Notes: generated by a model from the letters alone, not told the origin. Positions 2,379 to 48,354 are shown, counted from the first letter of the stretch. The stretch is DNA of 64,000 nt from Dehalococcoides sp. JdFR-56 (GCA_002011495.1 MTNR01000072.1:7371-71370); one strand, 5' to 3'. A program made the numbers and translations.

Positions 2379-2431
2379 AACTTCCAGCGTCTTTTCGTTC
2401 AGGAACTTTCGGCTTGGAGGAATCAGCGATA

Positions 2432-3754: not shown

Positions 3755-3862
3755 CCTGAGCGCCTAGAGCGGTCTCTCGGGGCTGGTCAACCCCGGCATC
3801 TCAGCATTCGTGCCGCGCCTTGCTGGCAAAAACGGGAGAAGACCATCGTCACGGGCTTTTCC

Positions 3863-7462: not shown

Positions 7463-7600
7463 GTCCCTGCTAAGCCAAGCTTAACCCTGCCCTTCGCCTC
7501 CGGCTTGGATGGAAACCTGAGCCCATCCGCAGTTAGTGAGATGGTAAGTTTTCTGCCATTCTACCATAATCAGCTTGGCCAAATCCCTGCCTTCCCATCC

Positions 7601-7633
7601 AAAAATGAGAGCGGCCCTCTAAGGGCCGCTCTC
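7601..7633 (-). terminator. Rho-independent terminator after hexaheme cytochrome A
   Basis: Perfect 11-bp stem gagagcggccc/gggccgctctc (7607-7633) with a 5-nt loop. On the minus strand it is followed by a U-run (AAAAA on plus, 7601-7605). It sits 46 nt past the stop at 7679. Confidence 0.7.
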
Positions 7634-7678
7634 GGGGTAGCTCCACCAGCTTGAAGCCAGAGTAACCTCAGCTGGCGG

Positions 7679-13911: not shown

Positions 13912-14189
13912 CCTGCTGTGGGGGATTTCTTGGCTAACGAGTCTGCCCTCCGCTCCATAGTATACGATAGCGCCCCAAGCTAATCAAGCAATTCGGGGCT
14001 GGGGCAAATGTCCCCCAACCACCGACCTACCTGGGCCCAAGGCGCCTATCTCCCCAGGATGTTTAGGAAATGTTTAGAAATCCCCAGTGAGTTTTAGGCA
14101 TTTGTTTAGCCTCACCCACCTACAATGGGCCCAGAAAGCAGCGCGGTAGTGACCGAACTTTCGCTTTCAAGCCTGAAGTAGGAGGAGTG

Positions 14190-15110
14190 ATGAAAAAGAT
14201 AAGATATATCCTGCCGCTTGTGGTGCTCCTCGCCAGTCTCTTATTTGCTAGTCTAGCTCTTGCCGATAATGGCCCGCATAGTCAGGACAAGATGAGCGAC
14301 CCTGAGCACTGCACGCTGTGTCATCGGTCCCACTCCTCTGCGGGCCCCGGGCTGCTGAGGGAGAGCCAGAATCTGGCCGCTTTCTGTTATACCTGTCACG
14401 GGAGAGACCGCTCCGGGGCGGCCACCAATGTTCAGGATGGCCGGTACTCCAATGGGGAGGGGTTGAGGGGCGGTGGCTTTGAACAGGCAGTGATGGACCC
14501 GGGGCTGACCGGAACTCCCTCAAGCAAAAAGGTGACCTCGGCGCACAGCGTTGATAGCTCCCTGGTGAGAGCCTGGGGCGGCGGCGATATCAGCAGCACC
14601 CCCGATTATGGGAACTTGATAGCGCTGGACTGCACCAGTTGCCATAATCCTCACGGCAATGGCACCTATCGCATGCTGCGCCCCCGGCCCAAGGGGATGT
14701 TCAATGAGGAAAACGCGGAGCCAGTGGTGGTGCCTGATGAAGATTCGCCCACCTATACCATCACCTATGATGAGACCACCCACTACCGTGATACTTCCTA
14801 TGTGCCGGAGAATCTGGATAAATGGTGTGCCCAGTGCCATACCAGGTATTTAGCCGGCCCTGAGGCGGGGCACACCCCGTCTGGTGATGCTATCTTCAAC
14901 TTTCGGCACCCCACTGAAGGCTTGCCTGGTGGCTGTCTAGCCTGTCATGTGGCTCATGGCACCACGGCCACAGTGGGGGAATATGGTGGGGCAGTGAACC
15001 TTCCCGATGGCACCTCCGGTGGCGGCGCCAGCGATAGCCGCCTGCTCCACACCGATGGCCGCGGCGTGTGCCTCCAGTGCCACAGCGCCAGCTCTCTCAC
15101 CCAAAACTAG
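14190..15110 (+). CDS. Secreted hexaheme c-type cytochrome (paralog B; OmcS-like motif order)
   Basis: Signal peptide, then CTLCHRSH, CYTCHG, CTSCHNPHG, CAQCHTRY, CLACHVAHG, CLQCHSAS, ending in LTQN. GGAGGAG lies just upstream of ATG 14190. The track starts at GTG 14187. Confidence 0.9.
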   Translation: MKKIRYILPLVVLLASLLFASLALADNGPHSQDKMSDPEHCTLCHRSHSSAGPGLLRESQNLAAFCYTCHGRDRSGAATNVQDGRYSNGEGLRGGGFEQAVMDPGLTGTPSSKKVTSAHSVDSSLVRAWGGGDISSTPDYGNLIALDCTSCHNPHGNGTYRMLRPRPKGMFNEENAEPVVVPDEDSPTYTITYDETTHYRDTSYVPENLDKWCAQCHTRYLAGPEAGHTPSGDAIFNFRHPTEGLPGGCLACHVAHGTTATVGEYGGAVNLPDGTSGGGASDSRLLHTDGRGVCLQCHSASSLTQN

Positions 15111-21182: not shown

Positions 21183-24038
21183 ATGGCGGTAATGAGGAGG
21201 GAAGGCGTTTATAAGGACTTATTGGAGCTGGGCTGGTTCAAGCGCCTGGCGAAGTGGCGTGGGCTCCAGTTCACCTTACAGGTTATCGGGCTTGCTTTTT
21301 TCGGCGTGATCATCTACGCGGGCCTGTTCGGTACCCCGGTGGGCGGCGAGAACGTGGGGTCTACCTTTACCTGGCTTATCTGGTGGACGCTCATCCCGGT
21401 GACCATGCTGGTGGCGGCCCGAGGGTGGTGTCTGGTATGTCCATGGATCGCTCCTGCTGAGTGGCTGCAGCGCCTGGCCTTCTGGTGGAAGGGAAAGCGA
21501 ACTTTAAGCCTGAACTGGAAGGTGCCCAGATTCCTGCAAAACTTCGGGCTGATGCTGGTCTTTTTCCTCATCTTGCACTGGGCGGACTCTACTTTCCATC
21601 TCGCCCTCCGCCCTGAGACCACGGTCTACCTCGCCCTAGGTCTGTTTGGTCTGGCCATAGCCGTTTCCCTAGTTTTTGAGAAGAGAAGCTTCTGCCGCTA
21701 CTTTTGCCCCATCGGCGCCATTATTGCTGCTTATTCGCTGGTGGCGCCAGTGGAAGTCCGCAATAAAGACCCCCAGGTCTGCCGTCGCTGCCACACCCGC
21801 AACTGCTTCAAAGGCAGCGAAAAGGGCTACGGCTGCCCCATGATGACCCACCCCTATGACTTTAACATTGATGAGCGGGGCTACGCACCATGCCGGGCGG
21901 CCTGTCCCGCTGGCGTCCACAGCGATGGCTATATCGCCCTTATCGCCCGGGGCAAGTTCAAGGAAGCCCTTGAGCTGCACCGGCAAACCATGCCCTTCGC
22001 CGGGGTTTGTGGACGCATCTGCATCCATCCCTGCGAGTCACAATGTGAAAGAGCCAAGGTGGATGAGCCAGTGTCTATCCGCAGGCTGAAGCGCTTCATG
22101 GCGGACTATGCGCTCAATAACGGGGGCAGGGGAAATATACTTCCCATTGCCAAGACAAAGGCGGACAAGGTGGCCATAATCGGCTCAGGCCCTGCTGGTC
22201 TGGCCTGCGCCTATGACCTGGTGAGGGAGGGATACCCGGTTACCGTCTTCGAGGCTGCCCCTGAGGCTGGAGGCCTGCTCCGATATGGCATCCCGGAATA
22301 CCGGTTGCCCAAGCGGATTCTGGATAGCGAGATAAGCTACATTGAAGGGCTGGGTGTTGAGATAAGGACAAACACCCCGGTAAGCGACCTCAGCAGCCTG
22401 TTTAGTCAAGGATACAAGGCCATTTTCTTGGCCACCGGGGCTGGCGCTAGCCAAAGGTTGAATATCCCCGGGGAAGAGGCTGAGGGGGTAGTCCATGCCC
22501 TTGATTTCCTCAGGCAGGTGAACTCCGGGGAAAAGGTCAGGATAGGCAGCCGAGTGGCAGTTATCGGCGGAGGTAACGCCGCCATAGATGCCGCCCGGGT
22601 CGCCCGGCGGCTGGGGGCACAGGAGGTCTCTATAATCTACCGGCGTTCCCGGGATGAAATGCCGGCGATCAGGAGTGAAGTTGAGCAGGCCGAGCGCGAG
22701 GGGATCAAGATTCATTTCCAGAAGGCGCCGGTCCAGGTTCTGAGCAAAAATGGTAGACTGACTGGCCTCCAGTGTGTTCAGACTGAGCTAGGCGAACCAG
22801 ATGCCGATGGCCGGCGCCAGCCGATACTCGTTGACGGCTCCCAATTCGATATTGAGCTTGATAATGTCATCATCGCCATCGGTCAAATTGTGCCTGGAAC
22901 AAAATTAACCAGCGGGCTTAAGCATACCGATTGGGGGACCCTCTCCGTTGACCCGGTTACCCTGCAGACAAATGTGGCCGGCGTTTTTGCCGGCGGTGAC
23001 GCCGTGGCTGGCCCGGCCGATGCCATCAGTGCCATTGCTGACGGCAAGGAGGCCGCCATCTCCATCAAACGCTACCTGGGCGGGATGGAAGTGGGGGAGG
23101 GAAGAGCGCCCCGGGCCAGAGTGGCCTCAACCGATGGTTTGGAAGTTAAGGAAAGGGAGGTTATGCCGGCATACGCCCTGGGGAAGCCAGGAGACTTCAG
23201 CGAGGCTGAGCCGGGCTTTGACCCCAAGACGGCGGTCAGCGAAGCCAGACGTTGCTGGAGCTGTGGCACCGGCTCCGATGGCGTAGACCGGAATACTTAC
23301 TGCGTGTTATGCCTGGAGTGCGTTAAAACCTGTCCCAATGATAACGTGGCGCTCAACATCCGAAGGCCCTTCCACGATATTTTCAAGAAAGGCGTGGGCT
23401 TTCTGCGCACCCGCGATATAAAATTCTCCCTCTCCTTGATCGCTATCGTGCTGCTCGGTGTCATTCCCTTCCACAATCTGGAGATGACGAATACCTATAC
23501 CAGCTTAGAGGCCAATCTAGCCAGTGGGCTGGGCATCTCTGAGATGGTGGTACGCACCACCGCCTTTCTCCTGACGGGGCTGATTGCCGTGGCTATCTTC
23601 TTCGGCTTTTCCTGGCTTGCCCAGCGCGCTAGCGGCGATAGGCAGTTCGGCACCAAAGGCATCTTCACCTGGTTTGCTCTGACCTTTATCCCCCTGGCGA
23701 TTAGCTTGCACCTGGCCCACAACTATTTCCATCTGCTGGAAGAGGGGGCGGTGATTATCCCCAACCTCTCTGATCCCTTTGGCTTCGGTTGGGATCTCTT
23801 CGGGACCGCTGGCGCCAGCGTGACCATTCTCCCCGCCACAGTGATAAGTAACCTGCAGTTCATCACCATCGGTCTTGGGTTCCTGGCCTCTGGTTACGCC
23901 CTGTACCGATTGCCCACCAATATGTTCGCCGCGCGGGCGCAAGCCTTGAGGTCCATGGCGCCGATGACGGTGCTTCTCATTGGCATGGCGATTTTCTACC
24001 TGTGGGTGCTGACTATACCCATGAGCATGAGATTTTAG
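21183..24038 (+). CDS. Membrane-bound Fe-S flavoprotein fusion: NapH/NosR-like polyferredoxin membrane module + GltD-like NAD(P)H oxidoreductase + C-terminal polytopic domain
   Basis: N-terminal TM region with CLVCPW and FCRYFCPIGA. The GltD-type Fe-S region reads CRAACPAG...GVCGRICIHPCESQCER, and the dinucleotide fold reads KVAIIGSGPAGLACAYDL...VAVIGGGNAAIDAA. Then YCVLCLECVKTCP and about 6 further TM segments. Confidence 0.8.
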   Translation: MAVMRREGVYKDLLELGWFKRLAKWRGLQFTLQVIGLAFFGVIIYAGLFGTPVGGENVGSTFTWLIWWTLIPVTMLVAARGWCLVCPWIAPAEWLQRLAFWWKGKRTLSLNWKVPRFLQNFGLMLVFFLILHWADSTFHLALRPETTVYLALGLFGLAIAVSLVFEKRSFCRYFCPIGAIIAAYSLVAPVEVRNKDPQVCRRCHTRNCFKGSEKGYGCPMMTHPYDFNIDERGYAPCRAACPAGVHSDGYIALIARGKFKEALELHRQTMPFAGVCGRICIHPCESQCERAKVDEPVSIRRLKRFMADYALNNGGRGNILPIAKTKADKVAIIGSGPAGLACAYDLVREGYPVTVFEAAPEAGGLLRYGIPEYRLPKRILDSEISYIEGLGVEIRTNTPVSDLSSLFSQGYKAIFLATGAGASQRLNIPGEEAEGVVHALDFLRQVNSGEKVRIGSRVAVIGGGNAAIDAARVARRLGAQEVSIIYRRSRDEMPAIRSEVEQAEREGIKIHFQKAPVQVLSKNGRLTGLQCVQTELGEPDADGRRQPILVDGSQFDIELDNVIIAIGQIVPGTKLTSGLKHTDWGTLSVDPVTLQTNVAGVFAGGDAVAGPADAISAIADGKEAAISIKRYLGGMEVGEGRAPRARVASTDGLEVKEREVMPAYALGKPGDFSEAEPGFDPKTAVSEARRCWSCGTGSDGVDRNTYCVLCLECVKTCPNDNVALNIRRPFHDIFKKGVGFLRTRDIKFSLSLIAIVLLGVIPFHNLEMTNTYTSLEANLASGLGISEMVVRTTAFLLTGLIAVAIFFGFSWLAQRASGDRQFGTKGIFTWFALTFIPLAISLHLAHNYFHLLEEGAVIIPNLSDPFGFGWDLFGTAGASVTILPATVISNLQFITIGLGFLASGYALYRLPTNMFAARAQALRSMAPMTVLLIGMAIFYLWVLTIPMSMRF

Positions 24039-24051
24039 AGGAGCTTGGCCC

Positions 24052-24168
24052 TTGAATAAGCTTGACCTCGCTGGAATCGCCATTTACCTGGCTCTTGCCG
24101 GGCTGGTGGTTGGCCTCTTTCTGGTTCTGATAGGGACCATCCTCAAGAGCCTCATCTTCGGCGTTTAA
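24052..24168 (+). CDS. Candidate 38-aa single-TM small protein
   Basis: Below the ORF-track size cutoff. TTG 24052 lies 8 nt after AGAGGAG. It translates (M)NKLDLAGIAIYLALAGLVVGLFLVLIGTILKSLIFGV and sits immediately after the 951-aa fusion gene. Confidence 0.3.
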   Translation: MNKLDLAGIAIYLALAGLVVGLFLVLIGTILKSLIFGV

Positions 24169-24289
24169 CATAGCCATCCCGCTTCCTGCCAAGCTAGGGC
24201 GTATTTGGCACCCATGCCAGCGGTGCCAACTCCAGGGGGTGCTTTAGGGTAACCCTTTGGTTTTGAAGTTTGACCGGGGCTGATAGACG

Positions 24290-25153
24290 ATGGACATACT
24301 GGCGACACTTTTCCGATTCCGGCAGTTCCTATTTGAATTCGGGCCATTCTTCCTAGCTGCCTGGTTTGGGCTGGCGCTGACTACCGGGCTGATAACGGTG
24401 CTCTCCAGTAAGAGGAGCAAATGGCCGAAGCTGGGGAGGTTTCTCTCCGCTATGCTCTACCATCCCGGCGGGAAGGCATGGGCAGTGCCTGCCGCCAGCG
24501 TGCTTTCCCTCTTCAGCCTGGCAACTTCCCTCCCGGCTCTGGTGGTAACCTCTCTCATTGGTATAAATGCCGTCCTGCTGCGGGCGGCCATGGCTGCCCT
24601 TCTAGCACCCTTCCTCAATTGGCTCATCACCTCAATACTATGGCCCAATCCAGGTGAGCGAGAGCCAGAAGCAGAGCAAATAGTGCCATTCTCAATAAAC
24701 AAGAGTGTTTTGGAGGCGGTGCCAGGGTCCAGCTCCCTGGTGCGGGTTAGCTGGAGAAGCTTTACTGGGCAGGTGAGTAGTGCCCTGCTTCCTTTGCTCA
24801 TCGGATTCATTTTGGCTTCAGCCCTCACTGTCCATGTTCCTGCGTATACCATCCGCCCTTGGCTGGGGGATGGGGTCTGGTGGGCGCCCTTCTTGGCGGC
24901 ACTTCTCGCCATTCCCTTCCAGCTAAGTGGGGGAGCCGAGGTGCCTTTGGCTTCGGCGCTGTTGGTCAAGGGAGCCAGCCTGGGGACGGCGCTGAGCGTG
25001 ATGCTGGCCTCCCCGATAGCCACTTCCTCCGCGGTTCGTCGCCTCTTCCAGCCAGCAAGGGTTGGGACAGTGGCCGCGTATTTGCTCACTGTCTGGCTTG
25101 CTGCTGGCTTTCTGGGGGCAGCGGTAGATGGGGCGCAGCGGCTTTTTGCCTGA
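24290..25153 (+). CDS. Polytopic membrane protein (putative permease)
   Basis: 287-aa hydrophobic ORF with several TM segments. The family assignment is not secure from sequence alone. Confidence 0.55.
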   Translation: MDILATLFRFRQFLFEFGPFFLAAWFGLALTTGLITVLSSKRSKWPKLGRFLSAMLYHPGGKAWAVPAASVLSLFSLATSLPALVVTSLIGINAVLLRAAMAALLAPFLNWLITSILWPNPGEREPEAEQIVPFSINKSVLEAVPGSSSLVRVSWRSFTGQVSSALLPLLIGFILASALTVHVPAYTIRPWLGDGVWWAPFLAALLAIPFQLSGGAEVPLASALLVKGASLGTALSVMLASPIATSSAVRRLFQPARVGTVAAYLLTVWLAAGFLGAAVDGAQRLFA

Positions 25154-25179
25154 CCGGATAGGGCAAGTGAGAAAGGCGG

Positions 25180-25923
25180 ATGATGGAGAATTTTGTCGCT
25201 AGCCTAACTAGTCTACTACCGTTCGGATATGCCTTTGGCGCCGGCATGGCGACCGGGGTCAGCCCCTGCGGTATCGCCATGCTGCCCGCCTATGTTTCCC
25301 TCTATCTGGGGGTGGAAGAGGGAGAGCCACTCAGCGGCTCCTCGCCCCGTCGAGTTGCCTGGGCGCTGATAATGAGCGGGGCCGTCACCCTGAGCTTCGT
25401 CGCCCTTTTTGGTGCCATGGGGGGCTTGCTTGCGGCAGGAGGCCAATTCCTGCTCGCCTTTATCCCCTGGATAGCCGTGCTTATTGGTGCGGCGCTTATT
25501 CTTTCGGGCATCTTTCTCCTCACTGGTGCCTCTATCTACAGCAGCCTGCCGGCACGCCTGGTGGCCCGGCTGGGCAGGCCTGACGGCCCTGGGGTAAAAG
25601 GTTTCATCGCCTTCGGTGTGGCCTATGCCATCGCCGCGCTGAGCTGCACGCTGCCCGTTTTCCTGGCGGTGGTGGCGAGCGCCCTGACCACAGGGGGGTT
25701 CGCCTCAGGACTATTTCAGTTTGTCAGCTATGCTTTGGGCATGGGGTTGGTCATCACCGTGGTAGCCATAGGGTCAGTGCTCTTCAGAGAGACGATGAAC
25801 AGATGGCTGCGACGTCTGGTGCCAGTTGTGGCCAGACTCAGCGGTTTGCTGCTTATCTTTGCTGGCGGCTATATTCTCTACTTCTGGTTTGTGGTGGGGG
25901 ACATCCTGAACTGGACATTCTGA
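25180..25923 (+). CDS. ccdA: Cytochrome c biogenesis thiol-disulfide transporter, CcdA/DsbD-TM family
   Basis: 6-TM protein with GVSPCGIAMLPAY and a second Cys-containing TM segment (ALSCTLPVF). A thioredoxin-like gene follows 13 nt downstream. Confidence 0.85.
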   Translation: MMENFVASLTSLLPFGYAFGAGMATGVSPCGIAMLPAYVSLYLGVEEGEPLSGSSPRRVAWALIMSGAVTLSFVALFGAMGGLLAAGGQFLLAFIPWIAVLIGAALILSGIFLLTGASIYSSLPARLVARLGRPDGPGVKGFIAFGVAYAIAALSCTLPVFLAVVASALTTGGFASGLFQFVSYALGMGLVITVVAIGSVLFRETMNRWLRRLVPVVARLSGLLLIFAGGYILYFWFVVGDILNWTF

Positions 25924-25936
25924 GAGGAGGGAAGAG

Positions 25937-26512
25937 ATGGATAAATTACCGGGACGCAGTAAATTATGGTCTCGCCATCTGGCCCTGGTGGTGCTGGCGC
26001 TCTCTATGCTTGTGGCGATACAGGGTTGTGCCGCCAGCCCTCCGGACTCGGGCAGAGGCGCGGGTGCCCGGGCAATCGAGCTCGAGCCTGCCCCCGAGGT
26101 GGGACATCCGGCGCCTGATTTTAGTTTGAAAGACCTGGACGGCAATACAGTTCGCCTGAGAGACCTGCGGGGCAGGGTGGTCTTCATCAACTTCTGGGCT
26201 AGCTGGTGCCCCCCGTGCCGGGCCGAGATGCCTGAGATTGAGGCCGTGCACCAGGAGTACAAGGATAAGGGGGTGGTGGTGATTGGCGTGGATATCTCCG
26301 AGCCGGAGAGCGTGGTCCGCCAGTACATACGGCAAGGCGGTTTTAGCTGGACGATAGTCCTGGACAGCACCGGGGAAGTCGCCAGAGACTATCGGATTAC
26401 TGCCATTCCTACCAGCTTCTTTGTGGATAGAGACGGGGTGATTCGGGCGGTGAACGTTGGTGCCATGACCAAGAGGGCCATGGAGGAAAAGCTGGCCCAG
26501 GCGATGCGATGA
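25937..26512 (+). CDS. Membrane-anchored thioredoxin-like thiol:disulfide oxidoreductase (ResA/TlpA family)
   Basis: Signal anchor with Cys (IQGCAA) and the WCPPC active site (FWASWCPPCRAEMP) in a TlpA-like context. Confidence 0.9.
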   Translation: MDKLPGRSKLWSRHLALVVLALSMLVAIQGCAASPPDSGRGAGARAIELEPAPEVGHPAPDFSLKDLDGNTVRLRDLRGRVVFINFWASWCPPCRAEMPEIEAVHQEYKDKGVVVIGVDISEPESVVRQYIRQGGFSWTIVLDSTGEVARDYRITAIPTSFFVDRDGVIRAVNVGAMTKRAMEEKLAQAMR

Positions 26513-26549
26513 AAAGCATAAATTCAACCCGGTCACGGCTCACTGAGCG

Positions 26550-27272
26550 GTGAATAGTGTATTAGGAGGGGCTCTCGTGGAAGCCAGCGTAGGGATGGCT
26601 TTGCTGCTGGGGTTGCTGTTGGGCGCCAGACACGCCGTGGATGCTGACCACGTGGTGGCGATAACGACCATCATCGGCCGTAATCGTGGCATGCTGCGCT
26701 CAGCGCTGGTCGGCCTAGCCTGGGGAGCGGGTCACAACCTCACTCTTTTTGGGGCGGGCTTTGTGGTGTTAGTTCTTAAGTTGAGCATTCCTCACACGTT
26801 TACTTTATCTGCCGAGTTCGCGGTGGGGGTGTTGCTGGTCATACTGGGGGTACCCTTGGTATGGCAGCTTATGAGGCGTAAGGCTCACGCCCATGTGCAT
26901 CAGCATGATGATGGGAGCCATTTTCACCTCCATTCCCATGCCGATACTCCGCATCACGAGCATGCTCACCTGAGGAAGCCGCTGCTGGTGGGGATGCTCC
27001 ACGGTCTGGCCGGGAGTGGGGCCCTTACCCTAGTGGCGCTCAATACCATGCCCTCGTTGGGGCAGGGCTTGGTCTTCTTGGCAGTCTTTGCCCTGGGGAT
27101 TACGGCGACTATGATAGTGCTCAGTGGTCTCATCGGCCTTCCCTTCAGGCTAGCTGCCCAGATATCAATACGGCTTGGTCAATGGATTCAGGGAGCGGCT
27201 GGAATGGGTAGTATTGCCCTCGGCCTTTTGGTGATGTGGCAAACTGGGCTTGCTGGCAAGCTATTTCATTGA
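26550..27272 (+). CDS. Nickel/cobalt transporter family membrane protein (NiCoT/RcnA-like)
   Basis: HX4DH signature in the first TM region (RHAVDADH), a central His-rich loop (HAHVHQHDDGSHFHLHSHADTPHHEHAH), and about 6 TM segments. Confidence 0.7.
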   Translation: MNSVLGGALVEASVGMALLLGLLLGARHAVDADHVVAITTIIGRNRGMLRSALVGLAWGAGHNLTLFGAGFVVLVLKLSIPHTFTLSAEFAVGVLLVILGVPLVWQLMRRKAHAHVHQHDDGSHFHLHSHADTPHHEHAHLRKPLLVGMLHGLAGSGALTLVALNTMPSLGQGLVFLAVFALGITATMIVLSGLIGLPFRLAAQISIRLGQWIQGAAGMGSIALGLLVMWQTGLAGKLFH

Positions 27273-27340: not shown

Positions 27341-28018
27341 CTAAGATATTTTTCTCAAAGCCTCTGGCTTCAAGACAATGATGCGTCGCCCCTCCATTTT
27401 GATGAGGCCGTTTTTCGCCATCCTGCGGAGGGAATTGTTCACCACCTGCCGGGAGCAGCCCAGCACGCAGGCCAGCTGCTCTTGGTTCAGCTGATGAACA
27501 GGAGCTGTGAGCGCCTCGCCACTTTGCTCGCTCGATTGAAGAAGCAATTTGGCCAGGCGTGAGTACACCCGTCTAAAGGAGAAATCCTCCACCGTGTTAA
27601 GGAAAAAGCGGAGCCTCATTGCCAGAATACGTATGATATCCAAAAGCGCCTGAGGGTGGGCATCGAACATTGCCCAGAAATCCGAGGCGGGAATGAGGAG
27701 CACCTCGCTCGCCTCCAGTGCCTCAGCGGTCACCGGGCTGGGGCCGCCGTCGAAGAGGGGCACGCATTCAAAACACCCTCCGCGGCGCACGATGTACATT
27801 ATCTGCTCCTCCCCCTGCGGGGAGGCCCGGAAAAGCTTTACTGAGCCAGATTTAACCAGAAACAAACCTGGGCACTTCTCCCCCTGCAGTATGATGATTT
27901 CCCCCTTGCCGAAGGAGAGTTCTTTGGCACAGCTGAGCAGCCATTCTATGGCCTCGGGACCAAGCCCAGCAAAGCAGGGCAGGGATTCCAAGAGGTCATA
28001 ATGGTGGCTGACTACCAT
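27341..28018 (-). CDS. Crp/Fnr-family transcriptional regulator
   Basis: cNMP-binding-like beta-barrel (GEIIILQGEKCPGLFLVKSGSVKLF) with a C-terminal HTH (NQEQLACVLGCSRQVVNNSLRRM). It is divergent from the oxidase operon. Confidence 0.85.
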   Translation of the reverse strand: MVVSHHYDLLESLPCFAGLGPEAIEWLLSCAKELSFGKGEIIILQGEKCPGLFLVKSGSVKLFRASPQGEEQIMYIVRRGGCFECVPLFDGGPSPVTAEALEASEVLLIPASDFWAMFDAHPQALLDIIRILAMRLRFFLNTVEDFSFRRVYSRLAKLLLQSSEQSGEALTAPVHQLNQEQLACVLGCSRQVVNNSLRRMAKNGLIKMEGRRIIVLKPEALRKIS

Positions 28019-28149
28019 AGTTTACCCTATGAGCAAAGCCAAAAAGTATGTATTAAAGATACACACTCTTCAGTATTTTTGTCAACTTTTTGACAGACAG
28101 GGGGTTCATCTACTGCTAAATTTAAATTCAGGTAAGGAGGGGCTTGCTC

Positions 28150-28254
28150 ATGTTGGTGCAAGAAGCAGTCAGGTTGTTATACATCATCTACTTCGTCGGC
28201 GCCAGTCTGTTCATGGTCTTTTTCATCATTAAGGTCAGAAAAAGGGGTGATTAG
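28150..28254 (+). CDS. Candidate 34-aa single-TM protein preceding the oxidase genes
   Basis: Below the track cutoff. ATG 28150 lies 8 nt after AAGGAGG. It translates MLVQEAVRLLYIIYFVGASLFMVFFIIKVRKRGD. The stop lies 2 nt before the subunit II ATG. Confidence 0.5.
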   Translation: MLVQEAVRLLYIIYFVGASLFMVFFIIKVRKRGD

Positions 28255-28256
28255 CC

Positions 28257-28679
28257 ATGGAGAGGAAAGAGAAGCTCTGGTTTGCCCTGTTGATTTTGAT
28301 CGCGGTCACCTTTAACGCCGTCACCCTTTCCCCATTGATTCCCTGGCAGGAATGGCGTCTGTGGTCTCACCCCACCCCGGAGAAGAGGTTCTTCATAGAG
28401 ATGGAGGACTATGAAATAAGGCTCCCTGAGCAGGGCATTGAGGTCAATGCCGGCGAGTTCGTTGAGTTTGTGGTTACCTCCAAGGACGTGACCTACGGAT
28501 TTGGTGTTTTCCGGCCTGATGGGACTATCGTCTTTCAGATGCAGGTGCTCCCCGGGTGGGAGAACAAGTTTCTCTGGAAATTTGACCATCCCGGCACCTA
28601 TAGCATCCGTTCCACCGAATACTCAGGGCCACGGCACCCTGAGATGTTCCTGAAAGACGCCATCAGGGTTAAATCTTAG
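28257..28679 (+). CDS. Heme-copper oxidase subunit II-like cupredoxin protein lacking the CuA cysteines
   Basis: One N-terminal TM segment plus a cupredoxin-like domain. The canonical CxExCGxxHxxM reads STEYSGPRHPEM, so both Cys are Ser. The upstream DVxHxF reads DVTYGF, so His is Tyr. Confidence 0.75.
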   Translation: MERKEKLWFALLILIAVTFNAVTLSPLIPWQEWRLWSHPTPEKRFFIEMEDYEIRLPEQGIEVNAGEFVEFVVTSKDVTYGFGVFRPDGTIVFQMQVLPGWENKFLWKFDHPGTYSIRSTEYSGPRHPEMFLKDAIRVKS

Positions 28680-28693
28680 AGGAGGAAAGGCAC

Positions 28694-30337
28694 ATGGCGC
28701 AGCTAGGCTTTCTGGAAAAATGGACGCTGAGGTTTGCCGTGGTGGGGCTTCTCTTCCTGGCGCTTTCCGGCCTGGAAGGAGTGCTCATGAGGATAGACCT
28801 GGTCAATGAAGAGGCCCTGCTTGGCCTGCAGGGGGCGCTGAATGTCATCCGGCCACTGGGCCAGGGGGCTTCTCCGGCCGAATATTTTTATGCCACGCTC
28901 ACCGCGCATCCCATCGTCGGCATTTATGGCTTCGCCTATATGGCCATCATGGGCGCTTTCTACTTTTTGGTTCCTTTCCTATTGAAGAAAGAGATACGGT
29001 TTAAGAAGCTGGTCCCGGTCAACTTCTTTCTGCAGATCGCCGGGGTATTGATTTGCTGGGCAGCCGGTTTCTTCCTCCTCTTCAATGGCCTCTATACCCT
29101 TTACTGGCCGCTGCCGGTCTCCTTTGACCGGGTGCCGGTGGCGGGCACGGCCATGTTTGGCTTTGGGCTTCTGCTCATTGAGATTAACATCCTGATATTT
29201 GTTTTCAACCTGTTTGCCACGGTGCTCAGGAGGAGCAACCCCTCCCCGGGATACAGCCTCCGCCGCTACCTGATGGAGGCCTTTGGCCTATCCCGGCTGG
29301 TGAGATTTCTGCTGAGGAAGGAGAAGAGCGAGGACGACCTTCGCTATGAGGAGATGCCGGTGTTCATCGTGGCGGTGGGGCGTGGCTCCATTGATACTGT
29401 GATCAATGCCTTTGTCCTGCTCACCGCCGGCGCTCTCCTCGTGATCTATGCGGTTCCTGCCCTGGCCGCTGGGCTATATCTCAATCCTCAAGCCATAGAC
29501 CCGCTCATTTACAAGAACTGGTTCTGGTGGGGTCTGGACATGGTCGCCGATGGCAATGTGCTCATGTACACCGCGGGAACCTGGTATCTGCTGGTGCCTT
29601 TGCTGGTGGGCAGGAAGCTGTACGGGGAATCGGTGGTCCGGACGGTGATATTGGCTGACCTTTTGATCTCGCTGGGGGTGTGGAGCCATCACCTTCTCGC
29701 CGACCAACCTCAACCTGCCTTTCTGAGACTACTCTCGGGTCAATTCATCACCTGGGGCGAGTTTCTCACCATGGGGCTGACCATTTTTGCCGTCATGATG
29801 ACTATCTGGCTGGCCAGACCAGTCAAGTTTACCCCGCCCTTAAAGTTCATCATGGGCTCCATCTTCAGCTTTGCTGTGGGTGGCGTGGCGGGAGTATTCC
29901 AAGCCAACTACGGCCTCAACGTGGTGGCGCACAATACCCAGTTAATCGTCGGGCCGCACGCCCATACCATGCTCCTCGGCGGGCTGGCTATGCTCATCTT
30001 TGCCGTAATCTATGCCTTGATTCCCATGCTGACCAAGATTGAGATACCCAACAGCCGCTGGGTGGACGTTCATCTATGGGGCTGGCTCCTGGGGGCCTTT
30101 GGCATGACCAGCGCCATGGGCTGGGCCGGCAATCTGGGCATGCTCCGAAGAACGCTTTATCCTGATGGCGCCTATCAGCCCGAGATGGTGGTGGCTCTGA
30201 TCTCCTCCCTCTTGATGGCCATCGCCTTCGCTAGCTTCCTCATCAATATCATCAGGAGTTTAGGATGGCGCAACGTACTCAGCTTGTTCATCCCCCAAGG
30301 ACGCCAAGTCTCTCCCTCCCCGCCATCGGTAACCTAA
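28694..30337 (+). CDS. Heme-copper oxidoreductase subunit I, atypical active site (B-family/NOR-like)
   Basis: 12 or more TM segments. Heme-ligand His residues are present (TLTAHPIVG; AHNTQLIVGPHAH), as is the HH pair (VWSHHLL). Helix VI reads WFWWGLDMVADG instead of WWxGHPxVY. Confidence 0.9.
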   Translation: MAQLGFLEKWTLRFAVVGLLFLALSGLEGVLMRIDLVNEEALLGLQGALNVIRPLGQGASPAEYFYATLTAHPIVGIYGFAYMAIMGAFYFLVPFLLKKEIRFKKLVPVNFFLQIAGVLICWAAGFFLLFNGLYTLYWPLPVSFDRVPVAGTAMFGFGLLLIEINILIFVFNLFATVLRRSNPSPGYSLRRYLMEAFGLSRLVRFLLRKEKSEDDLRYEEMPVFIVAVGRGSIDTVINAFVLLTAGALLVIYAVPALAAGLYLNPQAIDPLIYKNWFWWGLDMVADGNVLMYTAGTWYLLVPLLVGRKLYGESVVRTVILADLLISLGVWSHHLLADQPQPAFLRLLSGQFITWGEFLTMGLTIFAVMMTIWLARPVKFTPPLKFIMGSIFSFAVGGVAGVFQANYGLNVVAHNTQLIVGPHAHTMLLGGLAMLIFAVIYALIPMLTKIEIPNSRWVDVHLWGWLLGAFGMTSAMGWAGNLGMLRRTLYPDGAYQPEMVVALISSLLMAIAFASFLINIIRSLGWRNVLSLFIPQGRQVSPSPPSVT

Positions 30338-31182
30338 AGGCGTACTTTCTGGTCACCAAGCCAACCATGGTCTCCCTGCTGGTGTTTACCGGGGTGGTTG
30401 GCTTTGCCGTGGCCAGCCAGGGCACCTTCCCGGCGCTGCCCTTTCTACTTCTGGTGCTGGCGCTGAGTCTGGGCTGCGCCGGGGCCAATGTGCTCACCGG
30501 CTACATAGATAGAGATATTGACGCCATCATGGCGCGAACCAGACACCGGCCGATTCCCACCTCCCAAATCTCCCCGGATAAGGCGCTCATTTTTGGTCTG
30601 GTCTTGGCAGCTCTCGCCCTGGGTACCTCGCTCCAAATCAATGCGCTAACTTCCGCCCTCATTTTCCTGGGTCTGGTCAATAATGTGGTGATGTACAGTA
30701 TCTGGGCAAAGAGAAGGACTCCCCTCAACATATTGGTGGGCAGCCTCGCCGGAGGGTTGCCGGCGGTGGCGGGATACGCTGCCTATGCCAACGGCATTGG
30801 CCCAGAGGGCCTATTTCTGGGGGCTATCGTGGTGGTGTGGATCCCAGTGCATATATGGAGCCTCGCCCTTAAACACCGAGCTGATTATACAGAAGCGAAT
30901 GTGCCCATGCTGCCGGTGGTGATGGGTAAGAGAAGGGCGGTGCAATTTATCGCCATGGCCTCGGGTCTGCTGGTCCTCTTTTCCCTTGTCCCGGCTGCCC
31001 TTAACCTGTTCGGCTGGCTCTATCTATACAGCGCCCTGAGCCTTGGCCTAGTTCTGCTTTATCGCGGTCTGCGGCTTATGCTCAAGCCTGAGGCAAGTCG
31101 CGCCCTGGGTCTGTTCAAAGTGTCCAACCTCTACCTCGGCCTTCTCTTCCTCAGCGTACTCATTGAGGCGGTGGTCGCTTAA
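30265..31182 (+). CDS. ctaB: Protoheme IX farnesyltransferase (heme O synthase), UbiA superfamily
   Basis: Has LKAYFLVTKPTMVSLLVFTG and an Asp-rich motif (TGYIDRDIDAIMARTRHRP), with about 8 TM segments. The annotated start overlaps subunit I by 73 nt, so the true start may be further downstream. Confidence 0.85.
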   Translation: MAQRTQLVHPPRTPSLSLPAIGNLKAYFLVTKPTMVSLLVFTGVVGFAVASQGTFPALPFLLLVLALSLGCAGANVLTGYIDRDIDAIMARTRHRPIPTSQISPDKALIFGLVLAALALGTSLQINALTSALIFLGLVNNVVMYSIWAKRRTPLNILVGSLAGGLPAVAGYAAYANGIGPEGLFLGAIVVVWIPVHIWSLALKHRADYTEANVPMLPVVMGKRRAVQFIAMASGLLVLFSLVPAALNLFGWLYLYSALSLGLVLLYRGLRLMLKPEASRALGLFKVSNLYLGLLFLSVLIEAVVA

Positions 31183-38619: not shown

Positions 38620-39556
38620 GTGACGAGTCCACAATCCATTGAGACGACGAACCACCTCATTGCCTGGCTCAAACTGAGCCGGGTGCCTTTCCATACCGTA
38701 GGGTTTTTTTCCCTTTCTGCTGGGAATGGTGATTGCCTGGAGCCAGGGTTATCCCTTCAACTGGGGAGTGGGCACTCTCTCCACCCTGGCGGTGATTCTG
38801 ATAATGCTCGCCACCTATTACTCTGGCGAATATTACGACTACGACACGGACTCTCTGAACAGGGAATACAACAAGTTCAGCGGCGGCACCAGAGTCCTGC
38901 AGGCGGGATTAGTCCCCAAGAAGCAGGTTCTTTTGGCTGCCCTCCTAGCTCTGGCAGCAGCGGGAATTATCGGACTTATTCTTCAGTTTTATTTTAAGAC
39001 GGGACCCTTTACCATACCGCTCGGTGCTTTCGGCATGCTGTGTGGTTACTTCTATACCTCAAAGCCCCTGCGCTGGGCCTATAGAGGTGTAGGGGAGGTA
39101 CTGATAGGCATCTGCTATGGTTGGCTCGCCGTCAGCACTGCCTATTATCTTCAAACCGGTACCTTTGGGCTGATACCGACGCTGGCCTCCATACCTATCA
39201 GCATCAGCATTTTCCTGGTGATTCTGATCAACGAGTTCCCCGACTATACCTCGGACCGGGCGTCAGGCAAGAACAACCTGGTAGTGAGGCTGGGGCGTGA
39301 CAGAGCTGCCCTGTTGTATGCTAGCCTGGCGGCCATCTGTTTTCTGTCGATCGTGCTTGGCGTTCTGGCCGGGATACCCAGGCTCATGGCTTTCCTATCG
39401 GTAATACCGCTGGGACTGATAGTTCGCAACCTGCTGGCGTTGAAAAAGCGGGAATACAGGGAGAAGCAGGCTCTAGAAAAGATTTGCTCCAGAACGCTCC
39501 TACTCAATCTGGGCACAACCGCCTTGTATATTCTCGCTTTTGTCTTGTGGATATGA
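38620..39556 (+). pseudogene. UbiA-superfamily (MenA-like) prenyltransferase interrupted by a +1 frameshift in a T7 run
   Basis: GTG 38620 follows GGAAAGGAGG and gives MTSPQSIETTNHLIAWLKLSRVPFHTVGFF. The frame then breaks at T7 (38704-38710). Removing one T restores GFFPFLLGMVIAWSQG, which continues into track ORF 38726..39556 (Asp-rich motif EYYDYDTD). Confidence 0.7.
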
Positions 39557-40761
39557 AGGAAATTAATAGGTTAAGAAGAATAGTCAAGCCTTTCTATATG
39601 GCGCCGTCGCTGGTTGCCAAGCAGGCACTGAGTGCCTTGTATTTCGGCTATCTCACCCAGTGGCGCAGGTTACCCCAGTGGCTTCTCAAAGGAGGCAAAA
39701 CGCTTCCCACCGCCGCTGGGGCTATCGGCATGGGTTGTATCGGCTTTCCCATTCACCCGGTATGGGAGGTCACCACTGCCTGCAATCTGAGGTGCCGGCA
39801 CTGCCATGCCAGCGCGGGCAAGCGTCAGGAGGAGCTGAACACGGAGGAGGGCAAGAAGCTCCTTGACGAGATAGCCTCTGTGCCTGAATTCCGCATGCTG
39901 GTGCTGACCGGGGGCGAGCCCCTGGTACGTCCTGACATCATTGAGCTGGTGCAGTACGCCTCGGCTCTGGGACTCAAGGTGGCGATAGCCACCAATGGCA
40001 CCCTTATTGATACCCAGATGGCAAAGAAACTCAAGCGGGCGGGTGTCTGTGACCTTGCCATGGGGCTTGACGCTGCCACCCCGGACCTCCACGATTTTAT
40101 TCGCGATACCCCCGGCAGTTATGAGCGTACCCTGCGAGGCATTCGCGCCTGCCGAGAGGCAGGTATGTGTCTCCAAATAAATGTCACGGTGATGAAATAT
40201 AACTACTCGGAAATACCTAGGATACTTGACCTCGCCGATGAACTGGAGGCAGAGATCGTTCTTCTCTATCAGGTGGTGCCTCAGGGAAGGGGTGGCGGAA
40301 ATGGCCTGGAGCTGACAAAGGAGGAATACGCTCATCTGATGGATTTCGTCGCTGGGAAACAGGCGAGTGCCGTGCCCATTATTGAACCTACCTGCTCTCC
40401 TCAGTACTGGGCTTACTTGCTCAACAAAAGGCAAGTAAGTCATTGGGAACTGGGGCTGGCCCGCAAGGTGTTCCGGGGCTGTGCCGCGGGTTGGGGCCTC
40501 TGCTATATTAAACCCAATGGTGAGGTCTGGCCTTGTCCCTTCGTCCCTGTGAGCGGAGGGAATGTGCGCCAGATGCCCCTAACCCAGATATGGCATGAAG
40601 GGGGGCCATTCCGAAAGCTGCGGAATAGGGAGAAAAACCTTAGAGGAAGCTGCGCTACCTGTCATTGGCAGTCTGTATGTGGGGGGTGCCGCGGGAGGGC
40701 TTACGCTCACTCCGGTGATTATCTGGCAGAAGACCCCCTCTGCTTCCTTCACGACTGTTAA
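39553..40761 (+). CDS. Radical SAM enzyme with a C-terminal SPASM domain
   Basis: Has CNLRCRHC (CxxxCxxC), GGEPL, and SPASM cysteines (CAAGWGLCYIKPNGEVWPCPF; CATCHWQSVCGGCRGRAY). ATG 39553 overlaps the UbiA stop as ATGA. The track ORF starts at 39484. Confidence 0.85.
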   Translation: MKEINRLRRIVKPFYMAPSLVAKQALSALYFGYLTQWRRLPQWLLKGGKTLPTAAGAIGMGCIGFPIHPVWEVTTACNLRCRHCHASAGKRQEELNTEEGKKLLDEIASVPEFRMLVLTGGEPLVRPDIIELVQYASALGLKVAIATNGTLIDTQMAKKLKRAGVCDLAMGLDAATPDLHDFIRDTPGSYERTLRGIRACREAGMCLQINVTVMKYNYSEIPRILDLADELEAEIVLLYQVVPQGRGGGNGLELTKEEYAHLMDFVAGKQASAVPIIEPTCSPQYWAYLLNKRQVSHWELGLARKVFRGCAAGWGLCYIKPNGEVWPCPFVPVSGGNVRQMPLTQIWHEGGPFRKLRNREKNLRGSCATCHWQSVCGGCRGRAYAHSGDYLAEDPLCFLHDC

Positions 40762-46599: not shown

Positions 46600-48354
46600 C
46601 TAACACCAACCTAGTCTGGAAACTGCGTTAGCGTATTCAACAGCAATTTCCTCAAAGCGCGAGTAATCTCCGCCAAAGAGGCCTTGTCTTAAGGGTTCCC
46701 ATGACTCTTTTCGCTGTTTCGCTTCAGCTAATAGGTCTTTTAAGGGATTCTGCCCCTCGCTATTCCCTAATTTATAGCCAAACCTTCCGATTGGTCCCCA
46801 TATGCGTTTTCGTTCTTTGTTGAACAAATCAGCGTAAACCAAGGCAAACAGACATTCGAACCGGTCAAATGTTCTTTCATAAGTAACGTCGTCAGCCAAG
46901 AACTCCCGGAGCGGATTACGAAGTACGCGAGCCAGATGCTCACTAACCGGTGTATAAAAGTTTTGTCCCAGTATCTGGTTCATCGCTTTTTGGTCAGCTA
47001 TTTCCGCGGGGACTAGTTTCAAGGCGAGAGGCCTTCTTTCCCCATTATCGTTATACATTGGACCAGCCAGTAAGGCTGACAGAGTATCATATTTGTCTGC
47101 GGCTACCGCTGCAAGTCCCGATGTGTAGAGCAGCAAGAGGGCAGGATAGAGTCTGAGATTGAGCCAGACAACTAGTCCACCCTTACCGCCTTGCGGGTTT
47201 CCGATTCTCTCCAGGACTTTCACCCATAGTTTATGGTGAGCCGAGTTTCCCCAGTAACATCCTGTTGCCATTAGTGAGACAAGTGTTTCCAAGTTAGCCT
47301 CGTATTTGGCCAGGCGCTTCTTTAATTCTTCAACACTGAAGCCAACTCCCTCCACAGGAAAGTTGGTTTCAGATAGGATTCCATATGCTCTTTCTGTCTC
47401 TTCCATTACCAAGTCGTGCAAACGAATCTGATAACGCTCGTCCGTGAGATACCGTTTGGCACGGGCGATGGCCGCCTTGGTTGATAGCGGATGTGGCCGG
47501 GCATATTCTTCAAGCGCCATTACCTTTTCTGTTAGGTCACGAAAGAAGGTGTCTGCATCCTGTATCTCAATACGCTGGGCGCGGCGCAGTGTCATAATGC
47601 GCTGGGCGGAAGGGCTATCCTCGCCAAGAGACGTCCAGTAAGTAGTGAACCTGTGGCTCTGGCACCTCTCCAGTGCAGCCCGGAGCGCCGTATCCCACTC
47701 AGCAGACCATCCGCAAATGATAAGTCCAAACTCGTCGAAAATCCGGTCAAGGAGCGCATTCATTCTGTCATCAAACTGCGCCAGCTCCTCCGGGGTGTTC
47801 TTAATACGGGTATCCAAATAATCACCATGCACCTTTATTATGGTACACGACGTATGTACAATAGGAATAGCCCCCTCCGCAGCGTCGGGTGTGCTGATAA
47901 CAGTGGGCGTTACGCCCACATTCTCAAGTGCCGTTTCCAGCAGGCGATCAAAATTTGTGGTAATAATGACTCGGATATAGCCGTTGGCCACAAGCTCAGC
48001 AATGGCTTTATGGGCCTCAGTCGGGGTTTTAAGACCTTGCTCCCGCTCTTCTTCGTTCGGCTCGAAGTAGGTTCTCAATAAGCTGGCTCTTTCCGCCGGG
48101 GAACCCGCGGCTATTTCAAGTAATCTGGCATAGTCAGGATATGTGCCGAATTTGCTCTGATACCAATCCACAGGGTCAGCCTCACAATCTTCGCCCTGGA
48201 GATGAGCCACTTTACGTATCAGGTCAAGGATGACCTCCCATCCTGTAGGAATACCTGCTGCCCTAGATACCCCTGAACCTAGGAGCAGAGCATAAACGCC
48301 TTTCCCGCCATGTATTGAGAAAGCCAATGAAATTATCGGGTCAATCAGGGTCAT
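46600..48354 (-). CDS. SIR2-family (SIR2_2-like) protein with a ~320-aa C-terminal domain of unknown function
   Basis: The N-terminus has LLLGSGVSRAAGIPTGWE, TTNFDRLLE and IIKVHGD, so the SIR2-type Gly-rich loop, Asn and His are present. It starts 7 nt after the upstream RM gene stop. Confidence 0.8.
   Translation of the reverse strand: MTLIDPIISLAFSIHGGKGVYALLLGSGVSRAAGIPTGWEVILDLIRKVAHLQGEDCEADPVDWYQSKFGTYPDYARLLEIAAGSPAERASLLRTYFEPNEEEREQGLKTPTEAHKAIAELVANGYIRVIITTNFDRLLETALENVGVTPTVISTPDAAEGAIPIVHTSCTIIKVHGDYLDTRIKNTPEELAQFDDRMNALLDRIFDEFGLIICGWSAEWDTALRAALERCQSHRFTTYWTSLGEDSPSAQRIMTLRRAQRIEIQDADTFFRDLTEKVMALEEYARPHPLSTKAAIARAKRYLTDERYQIRLHDLVMEETERAYGILSETNFPVEGVGFSVEELKKRLAKYEANLETLVSLMATGCYWGNSAHHKLWVKVLERIGNPQGGKGGLVVWLNLRLYPALLLLYTSGLAAVAADKYDTLSALLAGPMYNDNGERRPLALKLVPAEIADQKAMNQILGQNFYTPVSEHLARVLRNPLREFLADDVTYERTFDRFECLFALVYADLFNKERKRIWGPIGRFGYKLGNSEGQNPLKDLLAEAKQRKESWEPLRQGLFGGDYSRFEEIAVEYANAVSRLGWC

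Follow-up and report, generated by a model that had tools for sequence, protein, structure and literature searches.

A gNOR-type relative of the heme-copper oxidases, with aspartate in place of an active-site histidine, encoded in Dehalococcoides sp. JdFR-56 DNA, and its possible role in nitric oxide reduction

Gene layout and catalytic residues

The window analyzed here is a 64,000-nucleotide stretch of DNA from Dehalococcoides sp. JdFR-56 (GCA_002011495.1 MTNR01000072.1:7371-71370). At 28150-31182 on its plus strand lie four tightly packed head-to-tail open reading frames (ORFs), each with a Shine-Dalgarno site, which encode a small single-helix protein, subunits II and I of a member of the heme-copper oxidase (HCO) superfamily, and a heme O synthase. 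We found that the catalytic subunit carries Asp at the position of an active-site His of ordinary HCOs and that the locus belongs to the published gNOR family, whose members probably act as quinol-dependent nitric oxide (NO) reductases. The gene structure, the motifs and their conservation, the family membership and the regulators that recur beside related genes were observed directly. The features of the locus are listed below, with positions counted from the first nucleotide of the window.

27341-28018, minus strand: divergent Crp/Fnr-family regulator, 225 aa (Pfam cNMP_binding, E = 8e-22; HTH_Crp_2, E = 2e-14)
28080-28095: perfect palindrome TGTCAACTTTTTGACA (TGTCA-N6-TGACA), a candidate Crp/Fnr-family binding site found by pattern search
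28150 (ATG) to 28254 (stop), plus strand: small ORF, 34 aa, single transmembrane (TM) helix, MLVQEAVRLLYIIYFVGASLFMVFFIIKVRKRGD, by ORF reading
28257-28679, plus strand: subunit II, 140 aa, one TM helix and a cupredoxin domain, by similarity to Thermus ba3 subunit II / CuA domain
28611-28646, plus strand: degenerate CuA loop of subunit II, STEYSGPRHPEM, by direct translation
28694-30337, plus strand: subunit I, 547 aa, catalytic subunit of the HCO superfamily, gNOR type (Pfam COX1, PF00115, E = 1e-64)
28907-28909, plus strand: H72, helix II axial ligand of the low-spin heme; invariant, aligned with the helix II His of all outgroups
29522-29557, plus strand: helix VI stretch of subunit I, WFWWGLDMVADG, translated FWWGLDMVADGN, by direct translation
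29537-29551, plus strand: D282-M-V-A-D286, at the CuB/FeB-His position and the cross-link-Tyr (cNOR Glu) position, respectively, by MAFFT L-INS-i alignment to GHPxVY sequences
29687-29692, plus strand: H332-H333, the two helix VII ligands of the non-heme metal; invariant, on the HH pair of all outgroups
29957-29965, plus strand: H422-A-H424, helix X ligands of the high-spin and low-spin hemes, respectively; both invariant
30265-31182, plus strand: ctaB / cyoE, heme O synthase, 305 aa (TIGR01473, 265 bits; cutoff, 210)

The translation signals are closely spaced. AAGGAGG lies about 9 nt before ATG 28150, and 2 nt separate the stop codon of the small ORF from ATG 28257 of subunit II, which has a GGGG run ahead of it. 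GAGGAGG precedes the start of subunit I at 28694, and AGGAG stands 6 nt before ATG 30265 of ctaB, whose start overlaps the 3' end of the subunit I gene by 73 nt. A mechanical ORF list gives the small ORF as 36 aa from TTG 28144, two codons before ATG 28150. The initial annotation, made from the sequence alone, had described a 34-aa single-TM ORF with a strong ribosome-binding site ahead of the operon, ctaB after it and a divergent Crp/Fnr gene upstream; the Shine-Dalgarno sequence before 28150 and the family-model matches listed above bear out all three.

Direct reading of subunit I gave the motifs TLTAHPIVG, WFWWGLDMVADG, WSHHLL and GPHAH, with helix VI as WWGLDMVADG; the heme-ligand and HH motifs reported in the initial annotation are all present in the translation. 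Three heme-ligand His (H72, H422 and H424) and the HH pair H332/H333 are retained. When subunit I was aligned by MAFFT L-INS-i with 31 full-length HCO representatives of other lineages, D282 and D286 took the places of the His and the Tyr, respectively, of GHPxVY (YKNWFWWGLDMVADG as compared with AKNMLWFFGHPVVY), in agreement with the earlier reading of an Asp at the CuB-His position and another at the Tyr position four residues later. No His occurs within helix VI (residues 270-305 in the structural model), as had also been noted. Both Asp are invariant among 20 sequences, and they and all the motif His are conserved to at least 97% in a set of 162 family members drawn from Bacteria and Archaea, suggesting that the substitution is more than a chance event and that the gene is not decayed.

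A census of conserved His in the 162 family members yielded only H72, H332, H333, H413, H422, H424 and H460, all seven of which align with His of ordinary HCOs. Since every conserved His is canonical, none from another helix can replace the lost ligand, and the idea that such a His fills the CuB site thus found no candidate. The alternative Tyr position of the C family, six residues before the HH pair, is taken by a conserved Ser (S326), and the heme-propionate Arg pair R485/R486 is conserved. Just before the helix X H-x-H motif (window 29927-29965, residues 412-424), we found a one-residue insertion, where gNOR reads HNTQLIVGPHAH as compared with HNTLWIVG-HFH, so that VGPHAH of gNOR stands against VG-HFH of the others in the alignment. 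A 2019 preprint (10.1101/592808) claimed a His-to-Glu heme-ligand change for gNOR. This change was not seen here, H72, H422 and H424 being at least 97% conserved, and the helix X insertion may have displaced the alignment in that preprint.

An AlphaFold2 (AF2) model of subunit I, built from a 20-sequence alignment, showed an HCO fold of 12-13 helices with a mean predicted local distance difference test score (pLDDT) of 72.9. A Foldseek comparison with the PDB gave TM-scores of 0.65-0.78 to bo3, aa3 and ba3, indicating a generic HCO fold that does not separate the A and B families. Ten conserved polar residues specific to gNOR (E28, R230, D234, K274, D337, Q340, T353, E356, T359 and Q403) are candidates for a quinol site or a proton path. 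We considered an equivalence of T353/E356/T359 in helix VIII to the K-channel of ba3 and rejected it: the spacing is right, but the residues do not align with P-S-x-x-T-x-x-T.

The closest solved relatives of subunit II are Thermus thermophilus ba3 subunit II and its CuA domain (E ~1e-6). In the alignment to the ba3 CuA domain, Y78 occupied the column of a His ligand and S119 and S123 those of the two Cys ligands in the canonical loop (C-x-E-x-C-G-x-x-H-x-x-M), just as the initial annotation had read both Cys as Ser and the upstream His as Tyr; the downstream ligands H127 and M130 are kept. The NCBIfam CoxB model gave 32.7 bits on subunit II, as compared with its cutoff of 147.7. For the gene neighbourhood we compared 80 related gNOR loci (given L numbers below), including their 129 nearest-neighbour genes. 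The subunit II gene adjoins the subunit I gene in 75 of the 80, and RSTEYSGP is invariant in more than 70 loci, the sole exception being L061, which reads DVTHGF...CTEYCGFRHSEM in the columns where all other loci have DVTYGF...STEYSGP. This locus (L061:1713-3827), from the metagenome-assembled genome (MAG) of a Thermofilaceae archaeon (JALURH010000216.1), encodes a subunit I with WWGLDLVADG and a subunit II with every CuA ligand (DVTHGF...RCTEYCGFRHSEM). By these motifs L061 encodes a gNOR that contains CuA, likely an evolutionary intermediate, and its retention of the CuA ligands suggests that the electron donor differs within the gNOR family.

Homologues of the small ORF, also of 34 aa, recur at this position in many loci of Chloroflexota and archaea, and in loci from archaea, Campylobacterales, Bacteroidota and Firestonebacteria the helix is instead the N-terminal part of a two-helix subunit II of 181-191 aa. 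The small ORF is thus a real gene, the detached first helix of subunit II. It is the counterpart of the 34-aa subunit IIa of Thermus ba3, and the split arrangement is a further B-family trait.

Family placement, related enzymes and gene neighbourhood

The gNOR family was reportedly described as early as 2008, by Hemp and Gennis and by Sievert et al. In a recent survey it is the only HCO family in which an active-site His is replaced, by Asp (Murali et al., PNAS 2024, PMC11214002). The same survey describes a cupredoxin subunit without CuA residues, derivation from the B family, probable oxidation of quinol, and an occurrence mainly in sulfidic habitats, with 156 GTDB genomes and 913 metagenome sequences (PMC11214002). 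A table in another paper gives 'D' as the diagnostic active-site residue of gNOR and names the genera Sulfurimonas, Sulfurovum and Persephonella (PMC8756737); the defining features and genera are also covered in PMC6094997.

With a Campylobacterales-type member as query, a search brought up proteins bearing the names Sulfurimonas, Sulfurovum, Persephonella and Nitrosophilus, all with WWGLDLIADG. The window subunit I is 40-44% identical to the homologues bearing these four names, and no other HCO representative tested shares more than 28% identity with it. In a tree built by distance-based neighbour joining only, with the distances of saturated pairs capped and with homologues bearing the genus names as the gNOR references, the window protein, the named genera and other Asp-Asp sequences, 25 in all, formed one clade in 200/200 bootstraps, with identities of at least 40% within the clade and at most 28% outside it. 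The nearest outgroups of this clade carry the B-type GHPVVY, and the window protein stood apart from the ordinary B-family oxidases, with which it might have been expected to group had it been one of them. Clustering at 50% reduced the family to about three full-length representatives (52%, 40% identity), beyond which proteins with a normal GHPxVY appeared at 30% or less. Within the family, the window subunit I lies in a Chloroflexota subclade (60-86% identity inside), and the closest match among genomes, at 85%, comes from a Dehalococcoidales MAG.

Two unusual HCOs, P0278 and P0319, are the nearest non-gNOR relatives in the tree. P0278 has WWGLHSYVN, with the His kept and Asn at the Tyr position, and FHH; P0319 has WVALRFYLQ and WQH and thus keeps just one of the three metal-ligand His.

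Scanning one genome for each GTDB species turned up homologues at no fewer than 548 loci, in Chloroflexota, Bathyarchaeia, Aigarchaeota, Thermoproteota, Campylobacterales, Bacteroidota, Myxococcales and Actinomycetota. Relatives of subunit I number in the thousands (2534 sequence clusters at E <= 1e-10). Database names conceal this family. GenBank HEY83279.1, from a Dehalococcoidia MAG, is identical in sequence to subunit I and is labelled 'cbb3-type cytochrome c oxidase subunit I', JGI names subunit I 'cytochrome c oxidase subunit 1', and the record G4O01_08355, identical to subunit II (28257-28679), is labelled 'hypothetical protein'; both of these misleading GenBank labels recur in NCBI entries across the gNOR family.

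Three other assignments were tried and rejected. The cbb3 (C-family) label is at odds with a ccoN (TIGR00780) score of 42 bits as compared with a cutoff of 583, with S326 at the helix VII Tyr position and with the absence of a cytochrome c gene from the operon. An O2 reductase of the B family (ba3 type) is not compatible with a helix VI of WWGLDMVADG, without His or Tyr, and a CuA site in which both Cys and the first His are replaced. An identity as cNOR or qNOR does not fit a site of two His and Asp, a cupredoxin as subunit II, and best sequence and fold matches among A- and B-family oxidases. Taken together, the HCO ligands, the Asp-for-His replacement, the Asp at the Tyr position, the CuA-less cupredoxin and the placement give the locus every trait by which gNOR is defined at the level of sequence, and they fit the cautious earlier call of a gNOR-like enzyme that may not be an O2 reductase. 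B-family ancestry of gNOR is suggested by the GHPVVY outgroups, the ba3-like subunit II, the IIa-II-I gene order and L061 with its CuA ligands. The locus is one ordinary member of the published family and adds nothing conceptually new to the published description. The comparison does add that IIa is either separate or fused to II, that one archaeal member has CuA ligands, and that Rrf2, Crp/Fnr and hemerythrin-PAS regulators recur nearby.

The published gNOR family, with examples in Sulfurimonas, Sulfurovum, Persephonella and Ca. Methylomirabilis oxyfera (Damo_1118-1119), shares with the window locus the Asp-Asp helix VI, heme ligands, HH pair and CuA-less cupredoxin. In comparison with the first-named gNORs, the window protein belongs to the Chloroflexota and not the Campylobacterota/Aquificota subclade, the first TM helix of its subunit II is a separate 34-aa gene, and its operon includes ctaB. 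The remnant CuA loop reads PRHPEM in the window, with His and Met kept, as compared with PKGAKM in the Campylobacterales and Bacteroidota forms.

Among characterized enzymes, T. thermophilus ba3 (PDB 1EHK, 3S8F) resembles the window locus in the CuA domain of subunit II, in fold (TM-score ~0.65-0.68) and in layout, with a small one-helix subunit followed by II and then I (cbaD-cbaB-cbaA). However, ba3 has a His-Tyr cofactor, a third His ligand and CuA, all of which the window gNOR lacks, and the K-channel residues of ba3 are not recognizably conserved in gNOR helix VIII, which has T353, E356 and T359 instead. Accordingly, gNOR is not expected to reduce O2. The bo3 oxidase of E. coli (CyoABCD and CyoE) was the best PDB sequence match to subunit I (E = 4e-13) and also the best fold match. 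It shares with the window locus a CuA-less cupredoxin as subunit II, a heme O synthase gene in the operon and a quinol donor, the last being probable for gNOR, but it belongs to the A family of O2 reductases and has a complete His3-Tyr CuB site, both D and K channels, and subunits III and IV. The residues of its quinol site (R71, D75, H98 and Q101) could not be mapped onto gNOR.

The cNOR (NorBC of Pseudomonas aeruginosa, PDB 3O0R) and qNOR (Geobacillus, Neisseria) enzymes share the chemistry proposed for gNOR, that is, NO reduction at a heme b3-type/non-heme iron site, and likewise lack an active-site Tyr; a quinol donor is probably common to qNOR and gNOR. The cNOR motif H207...E211-G corresponds to D282...D286-G of gNOR, with a carboxylate four residues past the first helix VI ligand in each. 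The cNOR/qNOR site, however, consists of three His and Glu, whereas that of gNOR consists of two His and Asp, with the second Asp as a possible addition. The similarity of the window subunit I to a ccoN-type model is weak (42 bits, as above), and cNOR and qNOR, which have either a cytochrome c subunit or an N-terminal domain fused on, are derived from the C family, whereas gNOR is derived from the B family, with a cupredoxin (PMC11214002). The bNOR (qCuANOR of Bacillus azotoformans), eNOR, sNOR and nNOR enzymes are B-family-derived and Tyr-less with cupredoxin subunits, like gNOR, and NO reductase activity has been shown for bNOR and eNOR and proposed for sNOR and nNOR (PMC11214002). These four keep three His and exchange only the Tyr (for Asn, Gln or Glu), and most retain CuA; gNOR alone exchanges a His.

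The palindrome at 28080-28095 may be a Crp/Fnr binding site, to judge from its form and position. TGTCA-N6-TGACA occurs once in the window, as compared with 0.03 occurrences expected by chance, and it is centred about 62 bp ahead of ATG 28150, in the stretch that separates the Crp/Fnr gene from the operon. FNR- or CRP-like boxes were also present upstream of the gNOR genes in L011, L041, L070 and L071. The translated Crp/Fnr protein of the window (27341-28018) has no FNR-type N-terminal Cys cluster.

Among the 80 loci, the nearest neighbours were mostly regulators of redox or NO type, namely Rrf2, Crp/Fnr, hemerythrin-PAS and HTH_10. Crp/Fnr genes lie within about 5 kb of gNOR genes in 8-10 loci, and archaeal HTH_10 regulators lie near them in 10. 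In L074, L076, L077, L078, L079 and L080 (at ~4700-5300), all from Bacteroidota or Actinomycetota, the gene for an Rrf2 regulator with a three-Cys Fe-S motif precedes that for subunit II by 30-106 bp, on the same strand. These regulators may be NsrR-like, although they score under all NCBIfam equivalog cutoffs. Proteins with a DUF438-hemerythrin-PAS_10 architecture occur within about 3 kb of gNOR genes in 13 loci (e.g., L016:6114-7520, L027:3309-4730, L054:8581-9864 and L077:4117-5319) of Chloroflexota, Firestonebacteria, Bacteroidota, Bathyarchaeia and Thermoproteota, and thus in both domains of life; a literature search for the DUF438 and hemerythrin architecture gave nothing.

The sole consistent linkage across the 80 loci is that of subunits II and I. 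A ctaB gene lies directly downstream also in the closest relatives, L001 and L031. In several Chloroflexota loci a polytopic membrane protein (median 459 aa) without a Pfam or NCBIfam match is encoded 13-134 bp downstream of subunit I (L011:5336-7027, L012:2346-3662, L018:7741-9120 and L030:6376-7752). It is absent from the window and may be an extra subunit or an assembly factor.

Proposed function and rival explanations

We propose, with a probability of about 0.75, that the locus encodes a B-family-derived HCO of the gNOR family acting as a quinol:NO reductase at a heme/non-heme-iron centre. The metal, electron donor, substrate and regulation in this proposal are taken from the literature and by analogy with related enzymes. 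Electrons would come from membrane quinol, probably menaquinol in the Chloroflexota host, since subunit II has no CuA with which to accept them from a soluble carrier. They would pass through the low-spin heme (H72, H424) to a binuclear centre made up of the high-spin heme (H422), probably heme O because the heme O synthase gene is co-transcribed, and a non-heme metal bound by H332, H333 and the carboxylate of D282. This 2-His/carboxylate ligand set favours iron as the metal. D286 could provide a fourth ligand or a proton relay, like Glu211 in cNOR. Four-electron reduction of O2 would be excluded by the lack of an active-site Tyr and of a His for the cross-link, and the predicted reaction is the two-electron one, 2 NO + 2 e- + 2 H+ -> N2O + H2O. 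The complex would consist of IIa (the 34-aa helix), II and I, as their joint encoding suggests, and its transcription would probably be switched on by the divergent Crp/Fnr regulator through TGTCA-N6-TGACA under low O2 or NO.

Several points weigh against this proposal. In pairwise HMMER alignments to PDB chains, which are anchored on a Gly and shifted by one residue, L281 and not D282 stands opposite the His, so that the His-to-Asp equivalence depends on the placement of a one-residue gap. The AF2 model is weakest around helix VI and the HH loop, where pLDDT is just 51-60, and is uninformative as to which residues face the heme. The gNOR-specific polar residues gave no match to known sites when mapped, and E28, R230, D234 and E356 are no more than candidates for the quinol site. 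Just 8 of the 80 loci (~10%) have ctaB within 6 kb. No nirK, nirS, nar, nap or nos gene was found in the window or among the 129 nearest-neighbour genes, and there is thus no pathway linkage to denitrification. The regulators nearby lend no more than indirect support; they fit NO detoxification and, equally well, a general redox or oxidative-stress response. As the initial annotation had noted, gNOR is without biochemical characterization (PMC11214002), and a search of the available literature found none of later date for any gNOR; NO reduction by gNOR is a hypothesis of the literature, resting on a bioinorganic mimic and on analogy.

As regards the alignment register, the spacing from W278 to D282 is 4 residues, the same as the canonical Trp-to-His spacing, which would place D282 and D286 on the Trp face of a continuous helix, and neither register (L281/A285 or D282/D286) puts a His or Tyr at the helix VI positions. 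This bears on the view that the locus encodes an ordinary terminal oxidase, of the B family or 'cbb3-type', that reduces O2 at a normal heme-CuB site and whose odd motifs are alignment artefacts. The one-residue shift of helix VI in pairwise alignments could be cited for such a view, together with the oxidase labels in GenBank and JGI, the Pfam COX1 match and the adjoining ctaB, as in oxidase operons. However, helix VI remains without His or Tyr under both registers, no conserved His is to spare, and S326 occupies the position of the C-family Tyr. Subunit II lacks both CuA Cys, there is no cytochrome c subunit, all the NCBIfam oxidase equivalogs (ccoN, CtaD, CyoB and SoxB) score far under their cutoffs on subunit I, and the clade is separate from the sequences bearing GHPxVY. 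We therefore consider an ordinary oxidase extremely improbable. It is very unlikely, too, that the protein is a catalytically dead relic, or an oxidase-derived heme-binding scaffold or sensor without redox turnover. The loss of both a universally conserved metal ligand and the CuA centre would agree with such a fate, as would the variable genomic context and the frequent regulator neighbours; against it stand the near-invariance of the replacement residues (at least 97% in the 162 sequences, across two domains of life), the conservation of the heme ligands, HH pair and R485/R486, the strong ribosome-binding sites and dedicated heme O synthase of the operon, and the presence of the family in at least 548 species genomes.

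A rival that accepts the family assignment holds that the physiological reaction is not NO reduction but one involving N2O, NO dismutation, peroxide or peroxynitrite, or a non-canonical route with O2, and that the enzyme serves anaerobes of sulfidic habitats in detoxification or respiration. The lack of biochemical data for the family and of linkage to denitrification genes, both noted above, is in its favour. So is the fact that many hosts are presumed strict anaerobes (Anaerolineae, Dehalococcoidia and Bathyarchaeia), and the hemerythrin-domain neighbours are equally compatible with the sensing of O2, NO or oxidative stress. For related HCO families, moreover, NO dismutation or N2O reduction has been proposed (PMC11214002). 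Nevertheless, the composition of the site is nearest to that of FeB in cNOR, with His and carboxylate ligands and a carboxylate four residues past the first ligand. NsrR and Dnr/NnrR, which are regulators of the Rrf2 and Crp/Fnr types, typically control NO-detoxifying genes, and the Rrf2 and Crp/Fnr regulators near gNOR genes would point the same way. According to PMC11214002, every characterized Tyr-less HCO is an NO reductase, and NO is reduced by a synthetic gNOR-site mimic cited there. On balance we regard a reaction other than NO reduction as unlikely and prefer the quinol:NO reductase. A bolder idea, which we hold only tentatively and think doubtful, is that gNOR is a new catalyst with a heme/2-His-2-carboxylate site, either an energy-conserving menaquinol:NO oxidoreductase that tolerates sulfide and has a proton path of its own or an enzyme for another substrate. 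The candidates for such a path would be E356, T353 and T359 of helix VIII, and E28, R230 and D234.

If gNOR is an NO reductase as proposed, it would represent an unaccounted capacity to produce N2O or detoxify NO in anaerobes such as Anaerolineae, Dehalococcoidia and Bathyarchaeia, one that standard annotation misses because of the 'cbb3-type oxidase' and 'hypothetical' labels in GenBank. If the new-catalyst idea were true, anaerobic Chloroflexota, Bathyarchaeia and others would possess an unrecognized respiratory or protective capability. The family is a good biochemical target, and the compact IIa-II-I-ctaB operon, with its own regulator and candidate operator, makes a convenient expression construct.

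Other features of the window

Upstream of the gNOR operon and on the same strand, 21183-27272 encodes a 951-aa protein in which a polytopic Fe-S membrane domain is fused to a GltD-like NAD(P)H flavoprotein. After it come an ArsP/SO_0444-like permease, a CcdA-like DsbD_TM protein, a ResA/TlpA-like thioredoxin and a His-rich NicO-like transporter. The genes of this segment adjoin gNOR in just 0-1 of the 80 other loci. We considered those for the CcdA, ResA-like, NicO-like and ArsP-like permease proteins (24290-27272) as gNOR accessory factors and rejected them on account of this rarity.

Multiheme c-type cytochromes are encoded at 2414-8632 and 14187-15110 beside two-component regulators; among the products of this cluster are two NapC/NirT-like proteins and one of 1199 aa that has MtrC/OmcA-like domains. 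Corrinoid/URO-D methyltransferase genes are present at 470-2232. Between 36000 and 57000, the GC content drops from ~58% to 44-50% and many ORFs have no Pfam match. This segment contains a radical SAM/SPASM protein gene beside a second UbiA-family gene (38726-40761) and, on the minus strand, genes for a SIR2_2-domain protein (46600-48354) and a Type ISP restriction-modification enzyme (48362-51661), and it looks like an acquired defence island.

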